Below are positions 2-36,306 of a stretch of 64,000 nucleotides of DNA, piece by piece. Within the stretch, counting starts at the first letter, position 1, and each line of letters begins with the position of its first letter. Source of the stretch: Minisyncoccota bacterium (GTDB taxonomy: Bacteria; Patescibacteriota; Minisyncoccia; Phycocordibacterales; UBA5272); assembly GCA_046350775.1 (NCBI GenBank), contig JAXLZS010000001.1, positions 156,379 through 220,378 on the forward strand, given 5' to 3'. A program made the position numbers and the translations under genes. The notes under the pieces are model-generated. The model searched no databases, was not told the origin of the DNA, and saw only the letters and a program-made list of their open reading frames with translations.

Positions 2-439
2 TATGAAAATAAAGTTGAAATGACAAAAGGAGTTAGAGAATTTTTAAATTTTTTAAATGAAAATAAAATCAGAAAAGCTGTAGCTACAACAGCGAGAAAT
101 AAAACTATAAAAATTCTTTTTGATAAATATGATTTATGGAAAGAGTTTGAAGTTATAGTTTGTGGTGAAGATATAGAAAAAAGTAAACCAGATCCTGAAA
201 TTTATGAAAAAGTTTTTGCTAAGCTAAACGACAATAATAATTTTGAAAAATTAGAAAAGATTGATTGTTTAGCAATAGAAGATGCGAGAAGTGGTATAGA
301 GTCTGCAAGGAATGCCGGAATAGAAGTAGTTTGTATTCCAAATGAAAATGCTTTTAATAAAGATGAAGATTTATCTATTGCAAATTATATTTGTGAAAGT
401 TTTGAGGATGAGAAATTAAGAGGAGTGGTATTAAAATAA
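2..439 (+). CDS. HAD-superfamily hydrolase (beta-phosphoglucomutase-like), C-terminal part; 5' end lies outside the window
   Basis: The reading frame is open back to position 2. HAD motifs III/IV are present: VIVCGEDIEKSKPDPEIY and IEDARSGIESARNAGIEVV. Confidence 0.55.
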   Translation, partial: YENKVEMTKGVREFLNFLNENKIRKAVATTARNKTIKILFDKYDLWKEFEVIVCGEDIEKSKPDPEIYEKVFAKLNDNNNFEKLEKIDCLAIEDARSGIESARNAGIEVVCIPNENAFNKDEDLSIANYICESFEDEKLRGVVLK

Positions 440-486
440 AAAAGCTTTTCAAAAAGAAAAGCTTTTATAAAAATACTGTTTACTGT

Positions 487-960
487 TTACTCTATCAATT
501 TGGTCTTTATCTTTAACCATAAAAAATAAAAAATCAAAGTCTTTGTAGAATTTTCATATATAATTCCAAACGTACTTCTCATTTCATTTTTTTTACACTG
601 TCCTATAGCAATACCAACAAAAGAAACCAAATCTCCTTCAGCATTACCTATAGCAATGCCAACAATAGAAAACAAATCTCTTTCAGCATTACCTATAGTA
701 ATACCAACAAGAGAAGTCAAATCTCTTTTAGCATTACCTATAGCAATACCAACAAAAGAAACCAAATCTTTTCCGGCTTTACCTATGACAAGGCCAACTA
801 AAGTAATATACTTGTACTGATATGCCAAAGCAAAAAAGAGTACAAGTGCTGGAAATAGCCAAAAGTTTAAATTATACTTTTGGACTACATAATAAAATCC
901 CCAAGTAAGTAATACAGAAAATAATACCTGTATATCTTTCAATAAATTTGATTTTCTCAT
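487..960 (-). CDS. small membrane protein with 2 N-terminal TM helices and 4-5 tandem 15-aa glycine-zipper-like repeats (VGIAIGNAxxDLxSx)
   Basis: ORF translation. The repeats GIAIGNAKRDLTSLV / GITIGNAERDLFSIV / GIAIGNAEGDLVSFV are encoded by 45-bp DNA tandem repeats. Confidence 0.45.
   Translation of the reverse strand: MRKSNLLKDIQVLFSVLLTWGFYYVVQKYNLNFWLFPALVLFFALAYQYKYITLVGLVIGKAGKDLVSFVGIAIGNAKRDLTSLVGITIGNAERDLFSIVGIAIGNAEGDLVSFVGIAIGQCKKNEMRSTFGIIYENSTKTLIFYFLWLKIKTKLIE
603..798. repeat. in-frame 45-bp tandem repeat, 4 full units plus 1 partial, inside the 487..960 gene
   Basis: Direct reading: ctatagcaataccaacaaaagaaaccaaatctccttcagcattac reiterated with point differences. Confidence 0.8.
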
Positions 961-1031
961 TTTTTATTGTTTTAGAACGTGAATAATTTTGTTTAAAATT
1001 CTGAATATATTTTATCATATATAAATCTATA

Positions 1032-1049
1032 TTGTCAAGTCTTAAAAAT
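1032..1049 (+). promoter_or_regulatory. conserved upstream motif TTGTCAAGTCTTAAAAAT (prfB); candidate promoter -35 region or regulator site
   Basis: Near-identical 18-mer also at 18044 (serS) and 21522 (dnaX). Core TTGTCAAG found at several other upstream regions. Confidence 0.55.
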
Positions 1050-1080
1050 ATCTTGATTTTAGAATATAATTTTAATAATT

Positions 1081-1977
1081 ATGAATCCTGATAAACAAAA
1101 TGTTCAAAAAGAAATAGAAAACCTTGAATCACAAATGAATAGCGCTGATTTTTGGAATGATAAAAATAAAGCGCAAGAAGTGATACAAAAAATAAAAGAA
1201 TTAAAAATGAAGCTTGAAGGAGGAAGTATTCTTGATGCTGGTGGAGCAATATTAAATATTTTAGCTGGAGCTGGCGGTGATGATAGTGAAGACTGGGCCA
1301 GAATGCTCCTTAATATGTATTTGAAATATTTTGAAAAAGAAAATTGGAGTGTAAACTTTCTTCACGAAAACAAAAATGATCATGGAGGATTTAGAAATAT
1401 ATCTTTAGAGATCGTTGGTAAAAATGTATATGGAAAATTAAAAAACGAATCTGGAGTGCATAGATTAGTAAGAATTTCACCATTTAATGCAAATGGAAAG
1501 CGTCATACAAGCTTTGCAATGGTAGAAATATTACCAATACTTCCAAAATTAGAGTTTGATAAATTTAAAAATAATATTAATTCTGATGAAATAGAAGTAG
1601 AGACTTCAAAATCAAGCGGACCAGGAGGACAGAATGTAAATAAAAGAGAAACAGCTGTGAGAGTGGTACACAGACCAACAAATATTGCAGTTCATGTATC
1701 GACAGAAAGAAGTCAGGAGCAAAATAAAGAAAAAGCTATGAATATGCTCTATGCAAAATTATTTAAAATAGAAGAAGAAAATAAAAAAGCAGAAGCTGAA
1801 GGTAGAAAAATATCTAAAATTACCGAAATAGAATGGGGGAATCAGATCAGAAACTATGTCCTTCATCCATATAAACTCGTAAAAGATTTAAGGACAAATA
1901 TTGAAACAAGTGACATCGATAAAATTTTAGAAAAAGGGGATTTGGAAGAATTTATTGAAGCAGAAAAGAATATTTAA
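1081..1977 (+). CDS. prfB: peptide chain release factor 2 (short form; no programmed +1 frameshift)
   Basis: SPF tripeptide (RISPFNANGKRHTSF) and GGQ motif (SSGPGGQNVNKRETAVRVVHRPT). It is a single uninterrupted ORF, and the promoter-like motif lies only 48 nt upstream. Confidence 0.85.
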   Translation: MNPDKQNVQKEIENLESQMNSADFWNDKNKAQEVIQKIKELKMKLEGGSILDAGGAILNILAGAGGDDSEDWARMLLNMYLKYFEKENWSVNFLHENKNDHGGFRNISLEIVGKNVYGKLKNESGVHRLVRISPFNANGKRHTSFAMVEILPILPKLEFDKFKNNINSDEIEVETSKSSGPGGQNVNKRETAVRVVHRPTNIAVHVSTERSQEQNKEKAMNMLYAKLFKIEEENKKAEAEGRKISKITEIEWGNQIRNYVLHPYKLVKDLRTNIETSDIDKILEKGDLEEFIEAEKNI

Positions 1978-2054
1978 TTTTTTGTTAATAACTTTTTTGA
2001 GAAGTTTTAATATATGATAGAATTAAAAATGTAATAAATAAGCGCTTTTATTTT

Positions 2055-2735
2055 ATGCTTTACTTCGAAAATGTAAGAAAAGAATATCCTGGAGGATTTA
2101 TCGTCTTAGACGATATTAATTTGACCATAGATAAAGGTGAACTTGTATCTGTTGTGGGACATTCTGGGGCCGGAAAGACTACTCTTATAAAGATGATACT
2201 AGCAGAAGAGAAACCAACTCACGGAAAAATATCTTTTAATTCTAGTCAGATACATAAATTAAAAGGAAATAAATTAGTAGATTTTCGTAGAAAAATAGGA
2301 ATGGTATTCCAGGATTTTAGATTATTATCAAATAGGACTGTGTTTGAAAACATTGCTTTTGCGATGGAGGCTTCTGGGAAAACAGATGAGGAAATACGCA
2401 AAGACGTACCTCATGTTCTTGATCTTGTGGATCTCGGAAATAAAATTTCCCATTTTCCAGATCAGCTCTCAGGCGGAGAAAAACAGCGTGTAGCCATAGC
2501 AAGAGCCCTTGTAAATAGACCAGAAATAATCATAGCTGATGAGCCTACAGGAAATCTTGATCCTGTGAATACTTATGACATTATACAAATATTGAAAAAA
2601 ATAAATGATCTAGGGACTACAGTCATATTAACTACCCACAACAAAGGCATCATAGATCACCTAAAGAAAAGAGTGATAACCATGGAAGATGGTAAAATAG
2701 TGAAAGATGAAAAAATAGGAAAATACTCAATTTAA
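2055..2735 (+). CDS. ftsE: cell-division ABC ATPase FtsE
   Basis: Walker [13 protein letters not shown] signature [15 protein letters not shown], Walker [13 protein letters not shown]. It is adjacent to ftsX. Confidence 0.85.
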
Positions 2736-2748
2736 ATTTTAATAAAAT

Positions 2749-3672
2749 ATGAAAATAACAATCAAAAGAATATTTAGATCCGGATTAAAAAGTTTTTTAA
2801 GAAACAAGACTGTATCTATATCTTCAGTCGGAATATTGACTACTACTCTAGTGATAATAGGGATATTTTTCTTTTTCAGAGGTATTTTTGATTATACTGT
2901 TGGTGAAATTAGAGATAAATTAGACATAAAAATCTCATTTAAATTAAATGCTGATTATGCTGATATAAATCAAATAAAAGATAAAATATCATCTATGCCA
3001 GAAGTAAAGTCTGCGACTCTCACTACCTCAGAAGATGCTCTCGAAATATTTAAGAAAAATCACTCAAATGATCCTGTGGCTTTGCAAGCATTGGATGAGA
3101 TAGGCTACAATCCTTTTCCAGCTTATCTCACTATCAATGCCCAAGATATAACGAGCTATGAGACTATATCTCAATCTCTAGATTCAGGATCAGAGTTTTT
3201 AGGTAATTCATACTCTATTATTGGAGATATAAATTATTATAAATTGAAATCAAGTATAGATAAATTAAATAATATCGTAAATTGGATAAATACTATAGGA
3301 TATTGGATTACTTTGATTTTTATAATATTGAGCGCCCTTATAGTTTTTAATACCATAAGATTGTCCATCTTTATTTATAAAGACGAAATATCGGTTATGA
3401 AGCTTGTAGGTGCTTCAAATATGTATATAAGAGGACCATTTTTGATAGAGGCTGCTATATACGCAGTGTCATCTTCTATATTATCAATGATATTATTTTG
3501 GCCCATGACTTATTATTTATCAAAAAAGACAATCTTATTCCTTAATGGTTTAAATATTTATAAATATTACACAGACAATTTTCTTTCTTTATTTTTCATA
3601 TTACTAGTCATGAGTTTAGCTCTTTCTTTTATATCTTGTCTCTTAGCTATTAGAAGATATTTGAAAATATAG
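2749..3672 (+). CDS. ftsX: cell-division permease FtsX
   Basis: N-terminal TM helix, a large extracytoplasmic loop and three C-terminal TM helices. It lies immediately downstream of ftsE. Confidence 0.8.
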   Translation: MKITIKRIFRSGLKSFLRNKTVSISSVGILTTTLVIIGIFFFFRGIFDYTVGEIRDKLDIKISFKLNADYADINQIKDKISSMPEVKSATLTTSEDALEIFKKNHSNDPVALQALDEIGYNPFPAYLTINAQDITSYETISQSLDSGSEFLGNSYSIIGDINYYKLKSSIDKLNNIVNWINTIGYWITLIFIILSALIVFNTIRLSIFIYKDEISVMKLVGASNMYIRGPFLIEAAIYAVSSSILSMILFWPMTYYLSKKTILFLNGLNIYKYYTDNFLSLFFILLVMSLALSFISCLLAIRRYLKI

Positions 3673-3749
3673 ATTTTTATCATGATATAATATTGTGATA
3701 CAAAGTCGACAATTATTTATTAAAATTTTTAGTTCACAAAAATTAATTT

Positions 3750-6104
3750 ATGTTATCAAAATCATCACAAAGAGTTTTTCTTTTTGTATCACTTTTTCTA
3801 GGGCTGTTTAGTTTGTCTTATTTTTCTTTCTTTAAAATTCCTTTTATCTTAAAATATTTATCAATAGATGCTGAAAAAAGTTTTATTTTTAGCATAGTGA
3901 GTCTTTTGTCAATTATTTCTTTTTATATTTATTTGATAATGAAAAAACAAATAAGTCTTCCTGAAAATAAATATGTAAAATGGTTGTTTATTGCTACTCC
4001 AGTAGCGATCCTACTGTCCTCTTTATTTTCTGGTAGTTTATCTGTTTCTTTTTTTGGTAAATATATCTCAATTCAAAATGCCGCATCATTCTTATCTATC
4101 GCTTTTCTGGTTTATATTTTATCTGCTTATCTTAAAAAGTTTAAAAGATTTGCCTGGACAGTTTTTATGGTTAGTAATTTTTTATTGACCTTACCAGTAA
4201 TATTGGCGGTACTTTTTTCAAAGTTCAATCTATTCAATATTGCCAACAAATTGGTCATTTTTGTAGATAATTGGGACACTGTCGCTATAATCTCCAGCAC
4301 TCTTTTAATAGTCACTCTAGTATACTTCGAGACAATAGCTTTTTCCAGAAAGCAAAAAATAATATCTGCCAGCATAATTTTTATACATCTAATTTTAATT
4401 ATTTGCATAATAATTCCAGATATTTGGTACGCTTTAGCATTTTCTTCTCTAGGTATCTTACTTATCTCCTTGTTTACTGACAGATCAAAAAATCAAAAAA
4501 TTAATATTTATAAAAAACTTTCTTTATATGTCTTTATAATATCAATATTTTTCGCACTGGCTTTTACTATACAAAATAGTAAAATACAAAATTTCTCTAA
4601 AAAAATAATTAATTTTACAGAAAAATATTCTGGTATTCATTACAATTTTGTTAAACCAAAATTGGGTATAAGTCTAGATCTTGGATTTACAGAATTGAGA
4701 AAGGGTAAAATATTTGGATCTGGTCCAGCTAGCTTTGACAGTGTCTGGCAAAAAGAAAAACCAGATTCAGTGATCGCTTCATCTTATTGGAATACTACTT
4801 TTACATCATCATATTCGGCTTTTACTACATTACTAGTAACTCTGGGAATAGTAGGGATATTGTTGCTTTTATTAATCATAGTCACAATATTTATCAGTAT
4901 TATTAAAAGCCTAAAAAAAGATTCAGAAAATTCTTATCTTGGACATGACGATGAGGATAGATTTTATTTCATATCATCGGTCGCTTTATTTATATTTAGT
5001 ACCACATCAATGTTTGTATTTACAAATATAGTCATATCTATAATAATATTCTCTTTATCTGTAGCTTTTGTGACATCAAATACGACAACATGGAAAGACA
5101 AAGAATCTACAAAATTAATTAATGGTATATTTTTATCTATCTTAATTATAGCCTTACTCGGAACATTGATTTCTATTAATAGAGTCAGAAGTACTTCTGT
5201 GTCATTGAGAGCAATAAATAATTATCAAATCGACAATGATATATCTAAATTGGAATCCGGACTTAGAAAAGCCGCTAGACTATCAGGAGATGATAATGAT
5301 TATAGAACTTTAACTCAATTCTATATATATAAAGCGGGAAGAATTTTAAATTCTACACCTGCGACTTCTACTGCAAATGAATTACAAAAAAATATTTTAG
5401 ATTCTGTAAATGAGGCCATCTCATCAGCAAATACGGCTATAAATATAGACAATCAAAATTATAATAATTATATAACCTTGGGATCTGTTTATAATTTTTT
5501 GATGTCTATAGGAGGGCAAAATAGAGACTCTTATTATCAAAAAGCAAAGGATAATTATTCTAAAGCTTTAAATCTTTACCCTAAAGATCCATCTACTTCT
5601 TTAACTATGGCCAGCTTAGAATATTCTTACAATCAAAACGCTACTACTACACTAGAAAATATAAAAAGGGCCCTAAATATAAAACCAAATTTTTCTACAG
5701 CATATTATGTCTTATCGCAATTAGCGGTACAATATAATGACAGAAATTCAGCAATACAATACGCTGCCCAAGCTATCCAGACAGATCCTAAAAATATAGA
5801 AGCCTATATGCAATATGGCATCTTGGTATTAAATAAAAAAGATTTGAATCAAGATGATTTAAATCAAGCATATTCAGCTTTTATGTCTGTGTTAAATATT
5901 GATCCAAATAATGTGACTGCTGCTTATTATTTATCTATCACATATATATTGGCGAAAGATTTTGATCATGCTCAATCATTGATCAATATATTACAAAAAG
6001 TATTGCCAAATGACCAAAAAATTAAAGATTTACAATCTTTCTTAAACACACAAAAAAATGGAGTGCCTACAGCCTCAACAACTAAAAAAACTATTAAAAA
6101 ATAG
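3750..6104 (+). CDS. large polytopic membrane protein (more than 10 TM helices) with C-terminal TPR-like repeats; possibly O-antigen-ligase/glycosyltransferase-like
   Basis: Hydrophobic N-terminal ~450 aa. The C-terminus carries repeated YxxAxxxYxKALNLxP-type TPR signatures. Confidence 0.45.
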   Translation: MLSKSSQRVFLFVSLFLGLFSLSYFSFFKIPFILKYLSIDAEKSFIFSIVSLLSIISFYIYLIMKKQISLPENKYVKWLFIATPVAILLSSLFSGSLSVSFFGKYISIQNAASFLSIAFLVYILSAYLKKFKRFAWTVFMVSNFLLTLPVILAVLFSKFNLFNIANKLVIFVDNWDTVAIISSTLLIVTLVYFETIAFSRKQKIISASIIFIHLILIICIIIPDIWYALAFSSLGILLISLFTDRSKNQKINIYKKLSLYVFIISIFFALAFTIQNSKIQNFSKKIINFTEKYSGIHYNFVKPKLGISLDLGFTELRKGKIFGSGPASFDSVWQKEKPDSVIASSYWNTTFTSSYSAFTTLLVTLGIVGILLLLLIIVTIFISIIKSLKKDSENSYLGHDDEDRFYFISSVALFIFSTTSMFVFTNIVISIIIFSLSVAFVTSNTTTWKDKESTKLINGIFLSILIIALLGTLISINRVRSTSVSLRAINNYQIDNDISKLESGLRKAARLSGDDNDYRTLTQFYIYKAGRILNSTPATSTANELQKNILDSVNEAISSANTAINIDNQNYNNYITLGSVYNFLMSIGGQNRDSYYQKAKDNYSKALNLYPKDPSTSLTMASLEYSYNQNATTTLENIKRALNIKPNFSTAYYVLSQLAVQYNDRNSAIQYAAQAIQTDPKNIEAYMQYGILVLNKKDLNQDDLNQAYSAFMSVLNIDPNNVTAAYYLSITYILAKDFDHAQSLINILQKVLPNDQKIKDLQSFLNTQKNGVPTASTTKKTIKK

Positions 6105-28620: not shown

Positions 28621-29175
28621 ATGACAAATAAAACAGATTCTTTTTTAAGCTTTAATGATGGTTATCTTTTTGAGACTTTAATGAAAAGGCTTACAGACAA
28701 AGAAGTATTTAAAAAGGTAATAGATGAAGGAATAATCAAAATAGATTTTGAATCTCTCAAGTTTTTTTTACAGAAGGAAATCGGATTTATATTTTATGAT
28801 CGTAGTCCATTAATTTTACCAGAAGACATGATAATGTACCCTGCTTATTCATTATTGTTGCTAGATACATATCTGTTTAAAATTAAATTACCGGCAACAA
28901 AAGAGGAAATAGAATCTCAATTCTTGAAAAGACACCTAGTATTTCCTCCTTATGGTCTAGTTAACGTTTTGGAACAAATACCAGATCAAAAGCTATATGA
29001 GAAAAGATTTTTAAGTATTGGAAAATATCCAAAAGCTGGATTGTTTTATAGTTTAATTAATTTCAGCGAAAATGGATCAGGGTCTCATAGCAGCGAATTT
29101 GTCGGCACCATCAAAATCCAAGATGGTTATGGTTCAGCAAAAGATACTTGGACCATTGGTGTAAAAGAAACTTAA
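28621..29175 (+). CDS. hypothetical protein
   Basis: ORF with no recognisable motif. Precedes the Pif1-like helicase. Confidence 0.35.
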   Translation: MTNKTDSFLSFNDGYLFETLMKRLTDKEVFKKVIDEGIIKIDFESLKFFLQKEIGFIFYDRSPLILPEDMIMYPAYSLLLLDTYLFKIKLPATKEEIESQFLKRHLVFPPYGLVNVLEQIPDQKLYEKRFLSIGKYPKAGLFYSLINFSENGSGSHSSEFVGTIKIQDGYGSAKDTWTIGVKET

Positions 29176-29272
29176 AAAGTTATTTATTTATTTTCCAAAA
29201 TAACCTCACTTTCGTGAGGTTATTTTTTTAATTATATATTTATATCTTTTATGTTAAAATTAATCTACTTTT

Positions 29273-30985
29273 ATGACTCAAAATGAGGCGCTGGATATTT
29301 TAAAAATGGGACATTCAGTATTTTTAACTGGAGCCGCTGGCACTGGTAAAACTTTTGTCTTGAATAAATATATTGAATATCTAAAATCACACAGCGTGAG
29401 ACCAGTCATCACAGCCTCGACCGGCATCGCCGCGACCCATGTCGGCGGACAAACTATACACTCTTGGAGTGGTATCGGTATAATAGAAAAGCTAGACAGA
29501 TACACTCTTGATAGATTAGAACAAAATGAAAAGCTCTATAAAAAATACGAAAATGTAAAAGTCTTGATCATAGATGAGATATCAATGCTTCACGCCTCAA
29601 GGCTAGATATGATCAACAAACTTTTTAAAACTTTTCGCCAAAGTGACAAGCCTTTTGCTGGTATACAAATGATCTTTTGTGGAGACTTTTTTCAGCTTCC
29701 GCCTGTAGTCAAAAATTCTCAGGCAGATTTTCAAAATGAAAAAGAGTTTGCTTATCACTCTCTCGCCTGGCAAGAATTAAATCCAGTCGTCTGCTATCTC
29801 TCAGAAAACTATAGACAAGATGATGAGAAGCTTTTAAAAATATTAAATGATATCAGATTTGAAAGAGATATAGAAAAAATACACGACATCCTCTCAAAAA
29901 AAATAAATAATCAAAAATCAGAAAATGGTGTCTTGAAACTCTACACTCACAATGTAGATGTAGACAATATTAATAAAAATGAATATGAAAAAATAGATAG
30001 TGAAGATGAATATACTTTTGAGATGACATCCTCTGGCAAAAAGCATCTCATAGAGTCACTAAAAAATAATTGCCTCGCTCCAGAGATTCTTGATCTAAAA
30101 ATCGGCACCAAAGTCATCTTTGTCAGAAATGATCAAAATAGAGAATATCAAAATGGTACACTCGGCACAATAATTGATTTTGATGTAGCCAAGATGCCGA
30201 TAGTCGAGACTTTTGATAAAAAAGAAATCACCACCAAGATAGAGACTTGGCAGCATGTCGATGATAATGGAAAGGTCCTAGCAGAAATCTCACAGATCCC
30301 TCTCCGCTATGCCTGGGCTATCACCGTCCATAAATCACAAGGTATGACTCTCGACGCTGCTGAGATAGATCTAGAAAAAGCTTTTGGATCTGGTATGGGA
30401 TATGTCGCACTTTCTCGTGTTAAAAAATTAGAAAACATATATTTAAAAGGTATCAATAAAGAAGCTCTCAAAATCCACAAAGATGTAGTGAGACAAGATA
30501 AAATTTTCCGAGAAAAATCAGATCGCGCTAGTCACGCTCTAGAAAAGTATTACGAAAATAGTGAGATGAAAAAAAAGCTAATCAAAAAGCAAGAAGATTT
30601 TATCATCTATTGTGACGGAGATCTGGTAGAGCATGAGATCGAAGAAGTAGAGCCAATAAAAAATAAAATCAAGACTTCACTGGTGACTCTAGAATATATA
30701 AAAGGAGAAATACTTCCAAAAGATATCGCTGAGCAAAGAGATCTGACTCTCGGGACAATTGTCGGACATATCGAAGATCTTTTTGAAGGGAAAATAATCA
30801 ATGAAAAAGATATTTCTTATATTATAAAAAATATCGAAAAGCATTATTCAGGATCTGATATGAAGACTATCAAAAAAGTCTTGAGAGAAGATAAAGGGCT
30901 AAAAGCTAAACATGATGAGCTAAATAAAAAGCACAAAATAAATATCGATTTCCATACTTTGAAATTATTGAGGCTCGAAATATAA
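29273..30985 (+). CDS. Pif1/RecD-family SF1B DNA helicase with a C-terminal extension
   Basis: Walker A GAAGTGKT, Walker B DEISML, and the Pif1/RecD-characteristic FCGDFFQLPPV motif. Confidence 0.75.
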   Translation: MTQNEALDILKMGHSVFLTGAAGTGKTFVLNKYIEYLKSHSVRPVITASTGIAATHVGGQTIHSWSGIGIIEKLDRYTLDRLEQNEKLYKKYENVKVLIIDEISMLHASRLDMINKLFKTFRQSDKPFAGIQMIFCGDFFQLPPVVKNSQADFQNEKEFAYHSLAWQELNPVVCYLSENYRQDDEKLLKILNDIRFERDIEKIHDILSKKINNQKSENGVLKLYTHNVDVDNINKNEYEKIDSEDEYTFEMTSSGKKHLIESLKNNCLAPEILDLKIGTKVIFVRNDQNREYQNGTLGTIIDFDVAKMPIVETFDKKEITTKIETWQHVDDNGKVLAEISQIPLRYAWAITVHKSQGMTLDAAEIDLEKAFGSGMGYVALSRVKKLENIYLKGINKEALKIHKDVVRQDKIFREKSDRASHALEKYYENSEMKKKLIKKQEDFIIYCDGDLVEHEIEEVEPIKNKIKTSLVTLEYIKGEILPKDIAEQRDLTLGTIVGHIEDLFEGKIINEKDISYIIKNIEKHYSGSDMKTIKKVLREDKGLKAKHDELNKKHKINIDFHTLKLLRLEI

Positions 30986-30986
30986 A

Positions 30987-31988
30987 TTATTTCACAAAAT
31001 ACATGTCTTGATTATAATCAGAGACGCCGAGATACTCGACATTATCCATCTCCTCACCATCAAGATCTAGACTGATTGTCTTTTCGTCGAGATTGTTTTT
31101 TCTATTTTCGATAAATTTATAAATCTTTTCAAAATCTCTACAATGTCTACATCCTTCACCTTTTACTTTTTCATTTGGACAGATATAGATACCTTTTTCA
31201 CGCAGATTTTTAATTTTGATGCCTATTTCTAAAATTTTATTTTTAGTTTCTTCTATATCTTTTAATTTTTCTTCATCTATCTTTTTTATATAAAATTCAT
31301 CATGCTCACTGTCTTCTTTTTTATTTTCATGATCGAGATACCAATAGGCCACCTCATCTATCTTAAAAATCTTGGAAGAATTTTCTTTCATGAGATTGGA
31401 GAGTAAAAGATAGTAGATTGGTAGCTGAAAAGAGTCATCATCTTCATCATTGCGACCAGTCTTAAAATCGATGATGCGTAGTGAGTCTGTATCTTTTAAA
31501 TATTCTACCCAATCAATACTACCGCAGAGTATGATATTCTCATCGAGAGAAAGATAATAATTTGGTATCATATCTCCTTTATAAAAATAACTAAGTGGAA
31601 TAATCTTATTTAAAAGTATCTTTGGACTCTCTACGACTTTCTTGATCATTTCTTCACCACGAATATAAAAAGATTTTTCTTCATCTTCATTTTTAAAGCC
31701 TCCCTTTTTACCATTATACTTTTTCCATTCTCTTTGAAAATTATTTAAAAGATTTTCTTTGATTTCTTTTTCTCTATCTTCGGTCTTTATATTTTTGAGA
31801 TCTTCGATGACTTTGTGGACCGCGACTCCGAGAGTGAGATGTGGTGAGGCAATATTTATCTTTCTCCTTGAAATAGGATCTTTAAAAACATTTTTCAAAT
31901 AATAAAGTCTGTCACAAGATAAAAAATCTCGGATTGATGAATGTGATATCCATACTGATTTGTATTTATCAGGCATAATTTTATACAT
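30987..31988 (-). CDS. PD-(D/E)XK RecB-family nuclease with a Cas4/AddB-type Cys cluster (nuclease domain only)
   Basis: Motif II GSIDWV, motif III IIDFKTG, QLPIYY motif. N-terminal Cys (SCDRLYYL) plus C-terminal CPNEKVKGEGCRHC. Confidence 0.7.
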   Translation of the reverse strand: MYKIMPDKYKSVWISHSSIRDFLSCDRLYYLKNVFKDPISRRKINIASPHLTLGVAVHKVIEDLKNIKTEDREKEIKENLLNNFQREWKKYNGKKGGFKNEDEEKSFYIRGEEMIKKVVESPKILLNKIIPLSYFYKGDMIPNYYLSLDENIILCGSIDWVEYLKDTDSLRIIDFKTGRNDEDDDSFQLPIYYLLLSNLMKENSSKIFKIDEVAYWYLDHENKKEDSEHDEFYIKKIDEEKLKDIEETKNKILEIGIKIKNLREKGIYICPNEKVKGEGCRHCRDFEKIYKFIENRKNNLDEKTISLDLDGEEMDNVEYLGVSDYNQDMYFVK

Positions 31989-32065
31989 TTTAGCATATTT
32001 GGGAAATAATAAATAAAATAAAACCTTAAAACTTATAAAAAGTTTAAGGTTTTATACACTTTACT

Positions 32066-32335
32066 TTACATAGCTTTCAGATCTTCTTCAAAACCATCGA
32101 TGTCTTTTCCTATATCCTCAAGAAGTTTCATATTAATTGCATGACTATCATTAATTAATTTAGACTCTTCCCTTGTAAGTTCATCGATTCTTTTTAATTC
32201 TTCATCTGTGTTGTATTTCTTTGTCATCAAAGGTAGTAATTCTTTACGCAAAGATTCTAATTTTTTATTAGTTTCTTCTTGTTGAACAAGTAAAGCATCC
32301 AAATTTTTATTAAAATTATCCATTGAGACTGGCAT
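32066..32335 (-). CDS. small coiled-coil protein lying between the AddA-like gene and the nuclease gene
   Basis: 89-aa charged helical ORF. Confidence 0.35.
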   Translation of the reverse strand: MPVSMDNFNKNLDALLVQQEETNKKLESLRKELLPLMTKKYNTDEELKRIDELTREESKLINDSHAINMKLLEDIGKDIDGFEEDLKAM

Positions 32336-32416
32336 TTGTAAGAACGATTTAAATTGTTAACTAATATATACATTATATATTATTAATATATGTTTGTCAA
32401 TAGTAATAAAAATCTT

Positions 32417-35400
32417 TTATATCTTCCCTTCAATCAAATCTCTTTCAAATTCTAAGATACCATTTATATTTGGTTCGTATTTGGATATATCTATTTTTGA
32501 TAATTCATCAATATTTTTTATTATCTTGTAGACTTTGACTATCAATTTTTCGAAATCTCTCCATTCATCTTTACTGATATCATTTTCAAAATCAAGATCA
32601 ATCTCCAAGACATCTTCATCATCTACAAAAGAAATCTGACCAGATTTTATTTCTTTACCTTTAAAATCTCTACTATTTTCGAGTAGGATTTTATAAAACA
32701 TCAGCTGCTGCTTATAATTATGCTTTTTGATATTCTCATAATCGTCTTTTTTAGCAGATTTGATTTCAAAATCTTTAAAGGCTTTTCCTGTCTTGATATC
32801 GACGACTTTTAGATTTTCATCTATCAATATCCTATCTACCTTTCCAGTAAACTCTGCTCCATCTATGACTATCCCCTGATTTTTAAAATTAGTCTCAGTC
32901 TTAGCATTTTTTGATTCTTCTAAAATTTCTTTTTGTTTTAATTTATAAAAATTATTTAAAGATTTTTCACCTTTCTTGATAAGATCTTCTTCATCTCCTA
33001 TTAAAAGTCTCGCCTTTTTGATTTCTTTTTCAAAAATTTCTAAGACTTCTTTTAATGCTAAAGATTTATTATTGGCTTTTGCGTAGACATACATTTCTTC
33101 TATAGCTCTATGCATAGCTGATCCATAGACAGCGCTACTGGATTTAGCTTGTGGAAAAAGAAGAAGATTCTGCTCGAGAAATAATTTTGGTCCACCTTTT
33201 TCGATATTCAAAAAATTATTGAGATGTGTAGGAGAAAGTTTATAATCTTCTAAAAGCTTTTCAAGTAACACCTTTTCAGATTTTGCAAAAGGAGGAATAT
33301 TATAAATCTTGAGTCCATTTTTGAGATCTTTATTTTCTATTTCTACTTTTTTATTTTTTAAATCTTGAAAATCCGCCAAAAAGGAAAGTACTTCACCTGA
33401 GTGAGTGATATAGATAGTATGCTTGGCACGAGTGACCGCTACGAAAAATAGTCTCAAGAAATCATCTTCATTGTCAGACAATCTCGAGAAAGGCATATTA
33501 AGAGGTAGTGGCAATTTATTCATGACACCTTTACTCTTCCAGACATTCTCATCAGCTGAGATGAGAAAGACGTATTCAAACTCTAGTCCTTTAGCTTTGT
33601 GACTAGTCATGAGATGTATAGCGTTTTTATCACCGATAAAGCTGGTCTTGTTGAGTAATGCGACATTATAATTTTTATGAAGATCTATAAAGCTAGAGAG
33701 ATCTTTGACTAGGAGCTTTTCTCCCTTTTTAAATTCTCTTAGTGCATAGATAAATACTCTCAGGCTTGAGAGGAAATGTATATATGAGGCCAGATTGCCT
33801 TTGATAACATCTTCACCAAAATAAAAGTCTTTATAATTTGAGACGAATTTACTTTTTAATTTTGGAATAGAGTTATTAAAATATTCGTCTTGATTTTCTT
33901 CTTGAGAGATCTCAATATCTTTGCTACCAATCAAAATATCTAAAATGATCTCCAGTGAGACAGTCTTAGCCAGCACTCCGAGCTCGACAAAAAACTTGGC
34001 CAGCTCTCTCACTTTTTCATCATCACTATCTTTCATGGTATCCAGCCATGACTTTTTTTCTTTATAGCTTTCTTCGGATATCTTCCAGATAGATAATCTA
34101 TCAATATCTAAAAATGAATAAGAAAGTATCTCTGGTAAAAGATCATCTGCTTCCTCTTTTTTATTATCACCGACACTTTCTAAAAATTTACAGATCTTGA
34201 TGAGTGGCTCAATATGGACCTCATTAAATACAGACTCTTTTCTCTCATAATTATAAGAAATATTTTCTGCATCGAGATATGGGAGTATCTCTTGCAGATC
34301 AGCGTGACGGCGACTGATGATAGCTATCTCTTTTTCATCGACACCTTTCTCTATCAGAGACTTGATCTCTTTAGCGACAAATAAAAACTCTTTTTCTTTT
34401 TCGTCGAAGCTATTGAGATATATTTCTCCGTCTTTTAATTCTTTATTTTTCGCGACGAGGTCCTTGATGAGATCTTGATTGTGCTTGGTCAATCTCTCGT
34501 CAGCCTTTTCTATGAGACTCTTGGCAAAGTCGAGCACCTTTTGAGTAGAGCGATAGTTGTCAGTCAGGACGATAAACTTCACTTCACTGTACATATTTTG
34601 AAAATTAAAAATATTATTTAATTCTGCTCCTTGAAATTTAAAAATAGATTGATCGTCATCTCCTACCGCAAAGACATTGGCCCTACCTTCGAGGACTGGA
34701 TTTTTGGTGATACTCTCTATCAATTTTACTTGAGCGAGATTGGTATCTTGAAATTCATCTACTAGTATGTATTGATATGTCTCCTCGATCTCAGCGCGCA
34801 GAGTCGCATTGTTTAGCAGTCTATCTCTCACATAGATGATCATGTCATTAAAATCAAATAGCCCGAGCCTGTGCAACTCTTTTTGGTATTCTTCATAGAT
34901 ATCACAAGCAGCAAAAAGCTTTTCCAGATATTTTTCTTCTTTAAAGACAAATTCCTCATTTTCATTTTTTTCAAAAAGCTTGAGCTTAGCTTTACTGAGA
35001 TTGTCCGCCTCTATCTCTTTTTCAAGATAGACAGCATAAAATTTTCCCACCTCAGTCCCGCTATTTGCAAATTCATCTTTGAGATTTATAAATTCTTCTT
35101 TAGCACCTTTTGAGCGGAGAGACTCTGGCACCTTTTTTAGTATTGGCTTTAGCTTTTCCAATTCTTCTCTATTCTTTTCTAATTTTTCTTTGACTTCTCT
35201 CGGAGTGAGACCAGCTTCTTTAAAATTTTGAATTCTAGCTTTGACATCAGAAAAGTAAGCATAGCCTATCTCCTCATGATATCCGTAGAGTGGATGACCG
35301 TATCTCAGATTTTTAAAAATATTTTCTAGTATCTCATTTTGTTTTAATTCGGCTATCGGCTCGTATCTATGTGCATCAAAAAAGTGCTCTGGATATTTTG

Positions 35401-35722
35401 AAATGATCTCAGTACAAAATGCATGAAAAGTAAATATTGGCACCTTGTAGGCAGTGCTACCCATGATCTTACTTAGTCTCTCGAGCATGTTTTTACTAGC
35501 ACTCTCGGTGAAAGTCAGACACAGTATCTCGTCAGGCTTCGCTAGGCCTTTATATATAATATTTGCGATACGAAGTGACAAAAGCTCTGTCTTTCCGCTT
35601 CCTGGGCCAGCTACGACGATCACAGGGCCTTCTAGAGCCTCGACAGCTTCCATTTGAGCCTTATTTAGCTTTTTTAGTCTCTCTTCAAAGAGTTTGTTGT
35701 GCTCCAAAAGTTGATTTATCAT
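32417..35722 (-). CDS. addA: AddA/RecB-like helicase-nuclease (UvrD-family SF1A helicase plus C-terminal RecB nuclease domain)
   Basis: Walker A VVAGPGSGKTE and UvrD motifs. C-terminal nuclease region GKVDRILID...VVDIKTGK with a QQLMFY motif. Confidence 0.8.
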   Translation of the reverse strand: MINQLLEHNKLFEERLKKLNKAQMEAVEALEGPVIVVAGPGSGKTELLSLRIANIIYKGLAKPDEILCLTFTESASKNMLERLSKIMGSTAYKVPIFTFHAFCTEIISKYPEHFFDAHRYEPIAELKQNEILENIFKNLRYGHPLYGYHEEIGYAYFSDVKARIQNFKEAGLTPREVKEKLEKNREELEKLKPILKKVPESLRSKGAKEEFINLKDEFANSGTEVGKFYAVYLEKEIEADNLSKAKLKLFEKNENEEFVFKEEKYLEKLFAACDIYEEYQKELHRLGLFDFNDMIIYVRDRLLNNATLRAEIEETYQYILVDEFQDTNLAQVKLIESITKNPVLEGRANVFAVGDDDQSIFKFQGAELNNIFNFQNMYSEVKFIVLTDNYRSTQKVLDFAKSLIEKADERLTKHNQDLIKDLVAKNKELKDGEIYLNSFDEKEKEFLFVAKEIKSLIEKGVDEKEIAIISRRHADLQEILPYLDAENISYNYERKESVFNEVHIEPLIKICKFLESVGDNKKEEADDLLPEILSYSFLDIDRLSIWKISEESYKEKKSWLDTMKDSDDEKVRELAKFFVELGVLAKTVSLEIILDILIGSKDIEISQEENQDEYFNNSIPKLKSKFVSNYKDFYFGEDVIKGNLASYIHFLSSLRVFIYALREFKKGEKLLVKDLSSFIDLHKNYNVALLNKTSFIGDKNAIHLMTSHKAKGLEFEYVFLISADENVWKSKGVMNKLPLPLNMPFSRLSDNEDDFLRLFFVAVTRAKHTIYITHSGEVLSFLADFQDLKNKKVEIENKDLKNGLKIYNIPPFAKSEKVLLEKLLEDYKLSPTHLNNFLNIEKGGPKLFLEQNLLLFPQAKSSSAVYGSAMHRAIEEMYVYAKANNKSLALKEVLEIFEKEIKKARLLIGDEEDLIKKGEKSLNNFYKLKQKEILEESKNAKTETNFKNQGIVIDGAEFTGKVDRILIDENLKVVDIKTGKAFKDFEIKSAKKDDYENIKKHNYKQQLMFYKILLENSRDFKGKEIKSGQISFVDDEDVLEIDLDFENDISKDEWRDFEKLIVKVYKIIKNIDELSKIDISKYEPNINGILEFERDLIEGKI

Positions 35723-35742
35723 AATAATATTTTTATCTTTAT

Positions 35743-36306
35743 TTATCCTATCTTAATACCTATTTTAGATAAAATCTTAGATAAAAAGAAAATAAATTTA
35801 TATTTAAAAGTCAAATTTGAAAGAAAAATAAATTTTTGCCCTTCAAGATTAGAAACGTCTTTTAATATTGTAGTATTAATTATTTTTTCTAGTTGATTCT
35901 TATAATTCAAAATATCGCTAGTCGAGGACATTGCATTTATTCTTGTATATAAAATGTTAGCCATCTCTATTTCATTAGACAAATCTATTAAACTAGTAGT
36001 AATTTCTGGATTTGTGTGTATTATATAATCTGATGAAATTAATATTTTTAATATTGAATTAGATAATAAAAATCCATTGTTAAATATAAGAGCGGGATTC
36101 AATTCAAAAATCTTTATCATTCCTTGTATTTTGTCTACATTTCTATTTTGTTCTATTGATAGCTCTGTATCTAATTTCTTTAATAACTTTTCTTTACTTT
36201 TATTAGACTCTCTCTTTTTTAAAAAAGAAACCAAAATTATTGAAAATAGAAGTGTTGTTATAATGCCAGAAATTAAATTTTGATTCAAGAAATTCCAAAT
36301 ATCCAT
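35743..36306 (-). CDS. hypothetical membrane-anchored protein
   Basis: ORF with an N-terminal TM helix. Confidence 0.35.
   Translation of the reverse strand: MDIWNFLNQNLISGIITTLLFSIILVSFLKKRESNKSKEKLLKKLDTELSIEQNRNVDKIQGMIKIFELNPALIFNNGFLLSNSILKILISSDYIIHTNPEITTSLIDLSNEIEMANILYTRINAMSSTSDILNYKNQLEKIINTTILKDVSNLEGQKFIFLSNLTFKYKFIFFLSKILSKIGIKIG

Follow-up and report, generated by a model that had tools for sequence, protein, structure and literature searches.

What kind of system is encoded where a helicase-nuclease, a stand-alone nuclease and a second helicase lie side by side in a bacterium of a reduced-genome lineage? We examined this question for positions 28621-36306 of a 64,000-nucleotide (nt) stretch of a Minisyncoccota bacterium (contig JAXLZS010000001.1; this whole stretch is referred to here as the window), which is AT-rich with a GC content of about 30%. 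An initial annotation had proposed either a minimised AddAB-type end-resection machine composed of helicase, coiled-coil adaptor and nuclease, or a helicase-plus-nuclease defence module, and each of the five open reading frames (ORFs) that it had placed here was recovered at its position and on its strand. Our analysis points to a different reading, which we hold to be about evenly balanced between right and wrong: a housekeeping, modular toolkit for DNA-end and flap processing that is typical of Patescibacteria (candidate phyla radiation, CPR) and not a fixed three-gene machine. Three enzymes, listed below, would make up this toolkit, and we infer that they probably cooperate in DNA-end processing.

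32417..35722, - strand: superfamily 1A (SF1A) UvrD/PcrA-type helicase with a C-terminal, cysteine-free RecB-type PD-(D/E)XK nuclease, 1101 amino acids (aa) (Pfam, structure)
30987..31988, - strand: solo Cas4-family 4Fe-4S PD-(D/E)XK nuclease, 333-aa ORF (Pfam, fold, Cys cluster)
29273..30985, + strand: Pif1-family helicase (SF1B), 570 aa, carrying a 2B domain and, at the C terminus, HTH_40 (Pfam)

Domain content and folds of the three enzymes

The 333-aa protein matched PDDEXK_1 as its only Pfam family (1.5e-21; 77.9 bits, cut-off 22), and a second ATG at 31976 (MPDKYK...) is the likeliest start, giving a product of 329 aa, because the aligned homologs begin there. Residues D159, D174, K176, Q188 and Y192, which make up the D...D/E-x-K motif and the RecB-type QxxxY motif, were invariant in 93 sequences, as were an N-terminal cysteine (C25) and three C-terminal ones (C270, C280 and C283) that are predicted to be the ligands of a 4Fe-4S cluster. 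The protein has the Cas4/AddB/Dna2-type nuclease fold and is nearest to the nuclease domains of ACE1, AdnA and Dna2 (structural comparison figures of 16.1, 14.7 and 14.0, the last with 241 residues aligned), with lower figures for 3L0A (12.6), Cas4 (10.2), RecB (9.0) and AddB (8.8). Pfam, alignment and fold thus agree with the initial description of a Cas4/AddB-type Cys-cluster nuclease that carries no helicase-like domain. At E ≤ 1e-30 an exhaustive HMMER search recovered 93 representatives, a number that rose to 2474 at E ≤ 1e-3; the family occurs in at least 327 species-representative genomes, its members are mostly 275-335 aa long (194-352 aa among the 120 matches listed, with full-length members of 273-352 aa), and members from diverse CPR lineages are 40-48% identical. 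The relatives of all three enzymes come from Patescibacteria/CPR assemblies, the few labelled otherwise being probably mis-binned.

Two narrower assignments of the nuclease were considered. AddB is a protein of about 1100 aa with an N-terminal, inactivated SF1 helicase-like domain, whereas the 333-aa protein is nuclease only and gave no NCBIfam AddB match; the suggestion that it might be a C-terminal fragment of AddB was rejected because it belongs to a full-length family conserved from end to end. A CRISPR-associated Cas4 would have cas1/cas2 or a repeat array beside it, and the neighbours here are helicases and housekeeping genes; no CRISPR-like array was found anywhere in the 64-kb window, as the initial annotation had also observed for the Cas4-like gene. 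The closest solved relative, ACE1 (9IAB, 9IAC), is by experiment an Fe4S4 single-stranded DNA (ssDNA) endonuclease that threads ssDNA through a channel and requires prior unwinding of a duplex (PMC12094033). By homology to this ssDNA-threading enzyme, the CPR nuclease should need a helicase in order to act on duplex DNA. The two differ in setting and in sequence, with no Argonaute or cas gene near the nuclease here and a sequence identity of only about 15%.

In the 1101-aa protein, Pfam confirmed the proposed UvrD-family helicase with a C-terminal RecB nuclease (UvrD-helicase, 2.9e-61; UvrD_C; PDDEXK_1 at residues 829-1068, 5.3e-14). The Walker A, DEFQD and motif VI sequences of the motor and the D..DxK..QxxxY residues of the nuclease are kept across 23 homologs, and residues 820-1101 contain no cysteine, so that the protein combines what defines AddA, an active SF1A UvrD-like helicase and a RecB-type nuclease without an Fe-S cluster. 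Its AlphaFold2 model (predicted local distance difference test score, pLDDT, of 82) had the whole chain of AddA 4ceh_A as its top global Foldseek match (E 1.2e-30), which upholds the initial view that it is AddA-like in architecture. By sequence its best PDB matches were PcrA (2e-50) and UvrD, and none of the NCBIfam equivalog cut-offs was reached: the top model was PcrA (266 bits, cut-off 911), with the AddA models TIGR02784 and TIGR02785 at 122 bits (cut-off 861) and 92 bits (cut-off 708), respectively. Nor was the full-length AddB partner of an AddA equivalog seen, there being no AddB-like ORF among the annotated ORFs of the window. Membership in AddA proper is therefore not established, since the motor sequence is nearest PcrA/UvrD and all of the equivalog cut-offs were failed. 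The protein belongs to a large and well-conserved Patescibacteria family of fusions of about 1100 aa, which sources name PcrA/UvrD.

The 570-aa protein had been annotated as a Pif1/RecD-family helicase, of which the Pif1 half stands and the RecD half does not. Pfam detected PIF1 (2e-40, 139 bits, cut-off 25.9), Pif1_2B (30 bits, cut-off 23.9) and HTH_40, so that the core, the 2B/SH3 domain and the family signature are all present, the last as the sequence KPFAGIQMIFCGDFFQLPPV, and Walker A, DE and motif V are kept in its homologs. Scores for RecD2 (75.6 bits, cut-off 500) and for RecD TIGR01447 (68.5, cut-off 310) fell below their thresholds, and no RecC-like gene lies near it.

Neighbourhoods of the nuclease in related genomes

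To survey the gene neighbourhoods, the window proteins were compared by tblastn with 84 loci centred on the nuclease in relatives (loci are labelled L0xx and proteins P0xxx below). In the window the Pif1 and nuclease genes lie tail-to-tail, as first described, with their stops 1 nt apart (30985 / 30987). Across the survey, Pif1 orthologs adjoined the nuclease in 18 of the 84 loci and in three orientations. Convergent pairs are found in the window's own group (the gap is 1 nt in both the window and L022, and -8 in L007), and same-strand pairs on scattered branches of the neighbour-joining nuclease tree, in both gene orders and with differing flanks (IF-2, PAP2/VTT, DUF2914), at distances of 19 nt (L018), 86 nt (L043), 3 nt (L049), an overlap (L063) and -4 nt (L068); Pfam verified PIF1 and the 2B domain in the L068, L063 and L049 partners. 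Under a crude null, the binomial probability of at least five immediate nuclease-Pif1 adjacencies in 60 lineages is roughly 1.9e-6. Because the adjacency recurs independently, in at least five scattered lineages and in several orientations, Pif1, which the initial annotation had missed as a partner, is the helicase that recurs most beside the nuclease and probably a more robust partner for it than the AddA-like one.

A subset of 54 loci was well flanked, with at least 3.5 kb on either side of the nuclease, and a helicase within 10 kb was counted as near. The AddA-like gene was near in 15 of these loci, Pif1 in 14, either of them in 22 and both in 7, as compared with a chance level of about 2-3% per helicase, this being the share that a 20-kb window takes of a 0.6-1 Mb genome. 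The order in which the AddA-like helicase-nuclease (A) precedes the Cas4-type nuclease (N), denoted A>N, occurs in a single part of the nuclease tree; it probably goes back to one ancestral arrangement, since broken up in places by insertions. The reverse order was found in one small group: L020 (10001-14538) and L080 (3972-13570) carry a divergent (about 30% identity) UvrD-PDDEXK_1 fusion of about 970 aa downstream of the nuclease (N>A'), and in L050 (320-1397) a helicase starts 20 nt downstream of the nuclease before the contig ends. When four loci were sampled from the side of the helicase, genes for L9, L27, cysteinyl-tRNA synthetase (CysRS) and an S41 peptidase surrounded it in all four, and the nuclease lay 1-2 kb downstream in two. 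The flanks are of a housekeeping kind throughout (ProRS, SufBD, AhpC, CysRS, L9/L27, S41 peptidase, DnaB, RpoBC).

Gene fusion provided a further link, as P0385 is a Rosetta stone protein in which a UvrD helicase is joined to a Cys-cluster nuclease matching the nuclease family profile. Among the best 150 representatives of the exhaustive search, this kind of fusion was seen once and the only others were tandem-nuclease proteins, with no nuclease-Pif1 fusion. The tandem proteins P0341 (1297 aa), P0358 (1047 aa) and P0365 (769 aa) have 5, 4 and 3 Cas4-like PDDEXK_1 domains, respectively; in P0365 each repeat has a visible Cys cluster of its own, and such concatenation of nucleases is unusual. 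A separate observation concerns the Nomurabacteria relative L001 (1676-3769), where, upstream of the helicase-nuclease, a MazG-like gene has as its neighbour a 697-aa protein with helicase domains (ResIII, SLFN-g3_helicase, weak PIF1) and a Peptidase_S24 (LexA-like) domain; the syntenic position in the window, from AhpC to the helicase, showed nothing comparable.

The insertion between helicase and nuclease, and the surrounding genes

The region between the two - strand enzyme genes and the ORFs on either side of the three enzymes contain the following features:

31989..32416, - strand: genome-specific insertion of about 420 bp between helicase and nuclease (alignment with L005, L008 and L001)
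32400..32372, - strand: sigma-70 promoter of the 89-aa ORF, perfect TTGACA-17-TATAAT (12/12 consensus positions)
32066..32335, - strand: 89-aa ORFan on the insertion, no family match above threshold
~32055..32011, - strand: hairpin and U-tract terminator (dG -14.7 kcal/mol, z -3.7), after the 89-aa ORF and before the nuclease gene
28621..29175, + strand: 184-aa ORFan, no Pfam, NCBIfam or PADLOC match, outside the module
29197..29226: strong terminator with a 13-bp stem, after the 184-aa ORF
35743..36306, - strand: 187-aa ORFan upstream of the helicase, no family match, outside the module
Window: core genes RpoB, RpoC, DnaG, RpoD, DnaB, MurD-like ligase, GluRS, CysRS, ProRS, SufBD, AhpC and S41 peptidase

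In the closest relatives, L005 and L008, only 3-28 nt separate the helicase stop from the nuclease start, and the window has about 420 bases more; the insertion is missing from relatives at 67-79% identity. The 89-aa protein encoded on it had been put forward as a coiled-coil adaptor between helicase and nuclease, and as a conserved adaptor it was rejected: it is an ORFan with a single, 99%-identical match among 5.8 billion proteins (on a Paceibacterota contig) and, with the threshold relaxed to E = 10, none in the 88 related loci. The initial annotation had named a lack of co-conservation in relatives as speaking against a dedicated trio of helicase, adaptor and nuclease, and this is what was found, so the trio does not hold. 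With a promoter and a hairpin/U-tract terminator of its own, the 89-aa ORF is predicted to form a separate transcription unit, and we regard it, from these sequence signals, as a later, independently transcribed insertion and not as a conserved component. The proposed - strand operon is interrupted here by the promoter and terminator of the 89-aa ORF; the helicase and nuclease genes are true neighbours in many relatives. An origin from a phage or mobile element was also rejected, as no relatives were found in IMG/VR and neither the window nor the related loci contain another copy of the cassette.

The junction between helicase and nuclease behaves like a hot spot for insertions, with unrelated small genes in different lineages: a protein of about 103 aa without Pfam match that is common to L040 (8492-10001) and L079 (9628-10001), an NYN-domain protein in L056 (9377-10001), and antisense small ORFs in L086 (9312-11587) and L006 (2945-3317). 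None of these junction ORFs proved related to the 89-aa ORF (phmmer --max). Of the flanking ORFs, the 184-aa one had been called an ORFan and is one, with no family match and no tblastn match in the 84 related loci; the 187-aa ORF likewise had no match in the related loci, where different genes occupy its position, and both are thus specific to this lineage. No tRNA or Rfam RNA, which might have marked an integration site, was found in the 64-kb window. Far from the locus, positions 602-786 hold about 4 tandem copies of a 45-nt repeat (86% matches), which encodes a 15-residue protein repeat within a 157-aa ORF (487..960, - strand).

Proposed mechanism, alternatives and meaning

How might such a toolkit work? 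The Fe-S nuclease would cut ssDNA threaded through a narrow channel and, since it could not itself open a duplex, would be served by separately encoded motors. The Pif1 helicase, moving 5'->3', would be one of these, the pair resembling a split Dna2, or a RecD motor with an AddB nuclease. Another motor, of 3'->5' polarity, may be provided in the window's lineage by the UvrD/PcrA-type helicase, which bears a RecB-type nuclease as AddA does. Both motors would unwind a broken end or a stalled fork, one on each strand, and we infer that cutting would be divided between the AddA-like nuclease, on the 3' strand, and the Fe-S nuclease, on the 5' strand. The product would be a substrate for RecA, and the role one in recombination. 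As there is no scaffold of the RecC/AddB type, there would probably be no Chi-type control. The stand-alone subunits would thereby do what RecBCD does with two motors of opposite polarity and AddAB/AdnAB with two nucleases, one of them carrying Fe-S. Known machines share parts of this plan. RecBCD of E. coli likewise combines, within one neighbourhood, a RecB-like SF1A helicase-nuclease with a helicase of the SF1B RecD/Pif1 type and opposite polarity, but here there is no RecC-like scaffold, an Fe-S nuclease is added, Pif1 is not a RecD equivalog and the genes do not form one operon. In eukaryotic Dna2 (5EAN) nuclease and helicase are one polypeptide, whereas here they are separate and the helicase is of the Pif1 family and not of the Dna2/Upf1-like branch. 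AdnAB of Mycobacterium (6PPJ, 6PPR) is also a two-nuclease resection machine, and only ACE1 matched the 333-aa protein better in structure than its AdnA nuclease domain did; unlike here, where one subunit would be nuclease only, both of its subunits are full helicase-nuclease fusions.

The toolkit reading is supported by the intact motifs of all three enzymes, the fold of the nuclease and the biochemistry of ACE1, the AddA-like fold of the helicase, the enrichment of helicases in the neighbourhood, the recurrent Pif1 pairs, the two A/N gene orders, the P0385 fusion and the housekeeping context. Several results weigh against it. Some 60% of the well-flanked loci have neither helicase within 10 kb of the nuclease, and two of the four helicase-centred loci have no nuclease within 6 kb. 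The null behind the adjacency probability assumes random gene placement and independent lineages, and A>N is weak evidence alone because it is essentially one inherited arrangement. In the window itself the inserted terminator is predicted to uncouple transcription of helicase and nuclease, and with Pif1 on the opposite strand no two of the three enzymes would share a transcript. Several of these results also favour the main rival, a less probable one, namely that there is no functional unit and that three independent housekeeping enzymes of repair and replication (a PcrA/UvrD equivalent bearing an extra nuclease, an ssDNA nuclease of general function, and a Pif1 helicase for G-quadruplexes and fork barriers) are close together through inherited synteny in small, gene-dense genomes. 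Most nuclease loci indeed lack both helicases nearby, the helicase keeps its L9, L27, CysRS and S41-peptidase synteny independently of the nuclease, and A>N seems to have arisen once, in an ancestor. Inherited synteny, however, would not readily account for a nuclease-Pif1 juxtaposition that arose repeatedly, in three orientations and among different flanks, nor for the overlapping or abutting nuclease-Pif1 ORFs, which are typical of co-translated partners, the second gene order of nuclease and UvrD-nuclease, or the existence of a UvrD-nuclease fusion.

AddAB of Bacillus subtilis (3U4Q, 4CEH) resembles the locus in its SF1A UvrD-like motor with a cysteine-free RecB-type nuclease, in a second PD-(D/E)XK nuclease, which like the nuclease domain of AddB is held together by an Fe-S cluster of the 1+3 Cys type, and in same-strand adjacent genes, which occur here in one clade. 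Taken literally as a minimised AddAB, with the AddA-like protein and the 333-aa nuclease as an obligate heterodimer and the 89-aa protein as adaptor for resecting double-strand break ends, the comparison becomes improbable. Globally the helicase is closest in structure to AddA, the fold of the nuclease is the Fe-S one of AddB and AdnA, and the genes abut in close relatives; yet the second nuclease is a solo protein of about 280-330 aa without the inactivated helicase scaffold of about 800 aa that in AddB forms the AddA interface and reads Chi, and there is therefore neither an AddA interface nor a Chi-recognition site. By sequence the motor is nearer PcrA/UvrD, and the NCBIfam AddA models reach 92-122 bits where 708-861 are required. 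The 89-aa ORF, which has a promoter and a terminator to itself, is inserted at a junction that holds unrelated small genes in other lineages, and pairing is not universal, A>N being limited to one part of the tree and most members of the nuclease family lying distant from UvrD-type genes. The AddAB analogy holds for architecture only. Defence against phages or plasmids, whether by a Gabija- or Hachiman-like helicase and nuclease or by solo-Cas4/ACE1-type degradation of invading DNA, is very unlikely. In its favour, ACE1 acts together with an Argonaute defence system (PMC12094033), cyanobacterial solo-Cas4 and UvrD lower plasmid maintenance (PMC10653904), UvrD-Cas4 fusions often stand in defence contexts (PMC5704561), and two homologs, of the first three examined, lie 4-8 kb from restriction-modification genes (in L002, a type I HsdR and another PDDEXK_1 protein at 149-4438; in L004, MvaI_BcnI and N6_N4_Mtase at 3886-5468), the density of such genes being high in CPR. 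PADLOC, however, gave only generic GajB (UvrD) and RecD and weak Cas4 matches on six proteins and no GajA, HamA or prokaryotic Argonaute partner, so that neither the specific partner nor the defence island of Gabija, Hachiman or another PADLOC system was found; the nuclease, at 40-48% identity with invariant sites across CPR, differs from patchily distributed defence genes, it is flanked by core housekeeping genes whose synteny is conserved, and no copy of the family was found in viral contigs (IMG/VR).

Solo Cas4-family genes were reported by Hudaiberdiev et al. (2017) to be over-represented in CPR and DPANN with functions uncharacterised, and that paper (PMC5704561) also places in pfam12705 a monophyletic clade of UvrD-Cas4 fusions and describes unfused operons of UvrD and Cas4-like genes, mostly in Clostridiales, that may act in repair. 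The pairing of a Cas4-like nuclease with a UvrD helicase is thus a known idea. In the searchable literature, including the text of PMC5704561, we did not find described a recurrent pairing of a Cas4-like nuclease with Pif1, or its pairing with a helicase that already bears a RecB nuclease (the two-nuclease logic of AddAB); the housekeeping, CPR-wide character of the nuclease family was likewise not found described in the searchable literature, and a search for AddAB/RecBCD repair in CPR/Patescibacteria and for Pif1-Cas4 neighbourhoods found nothing relevant.

DNA-break processing in minimal-genome CPR bacteria is, to our knowledge, essentially unstudied. The mechanism outlined above was drawn from comparative genomics, and nothing in it would strongly surprise a specialist; it yields the testable hypothesis that Pif1 and AddA-like motors, each encoded separately, have this nuclease as the subunit that cuts. 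Should this fail, the locus would be an inherited synteny of ordinary repair genes. If it is true, end resection could be put together from free-standing modules without a RecC/AddB scaffold, and the Dna2/Pif1 pairing would have a bacterial counterpart. We suggest, more tentatively and as the less likely outcome, that in Patescibacteria, and perhaps in further lineages of reduced genome, ends are resected by a system of three parts without a scaffold, in which the nuclease docks on the 5'->3' Pif1 motor, as a split bacterial analogue of Dna2, and the AddA-like 3'->5' helicase-nuclease is the third part. Such a system would amount to bipolar, dual-nuclease resection free of Chi control, and would explain the long-noted excess of solo Cas4-family genes in CPR genomes.

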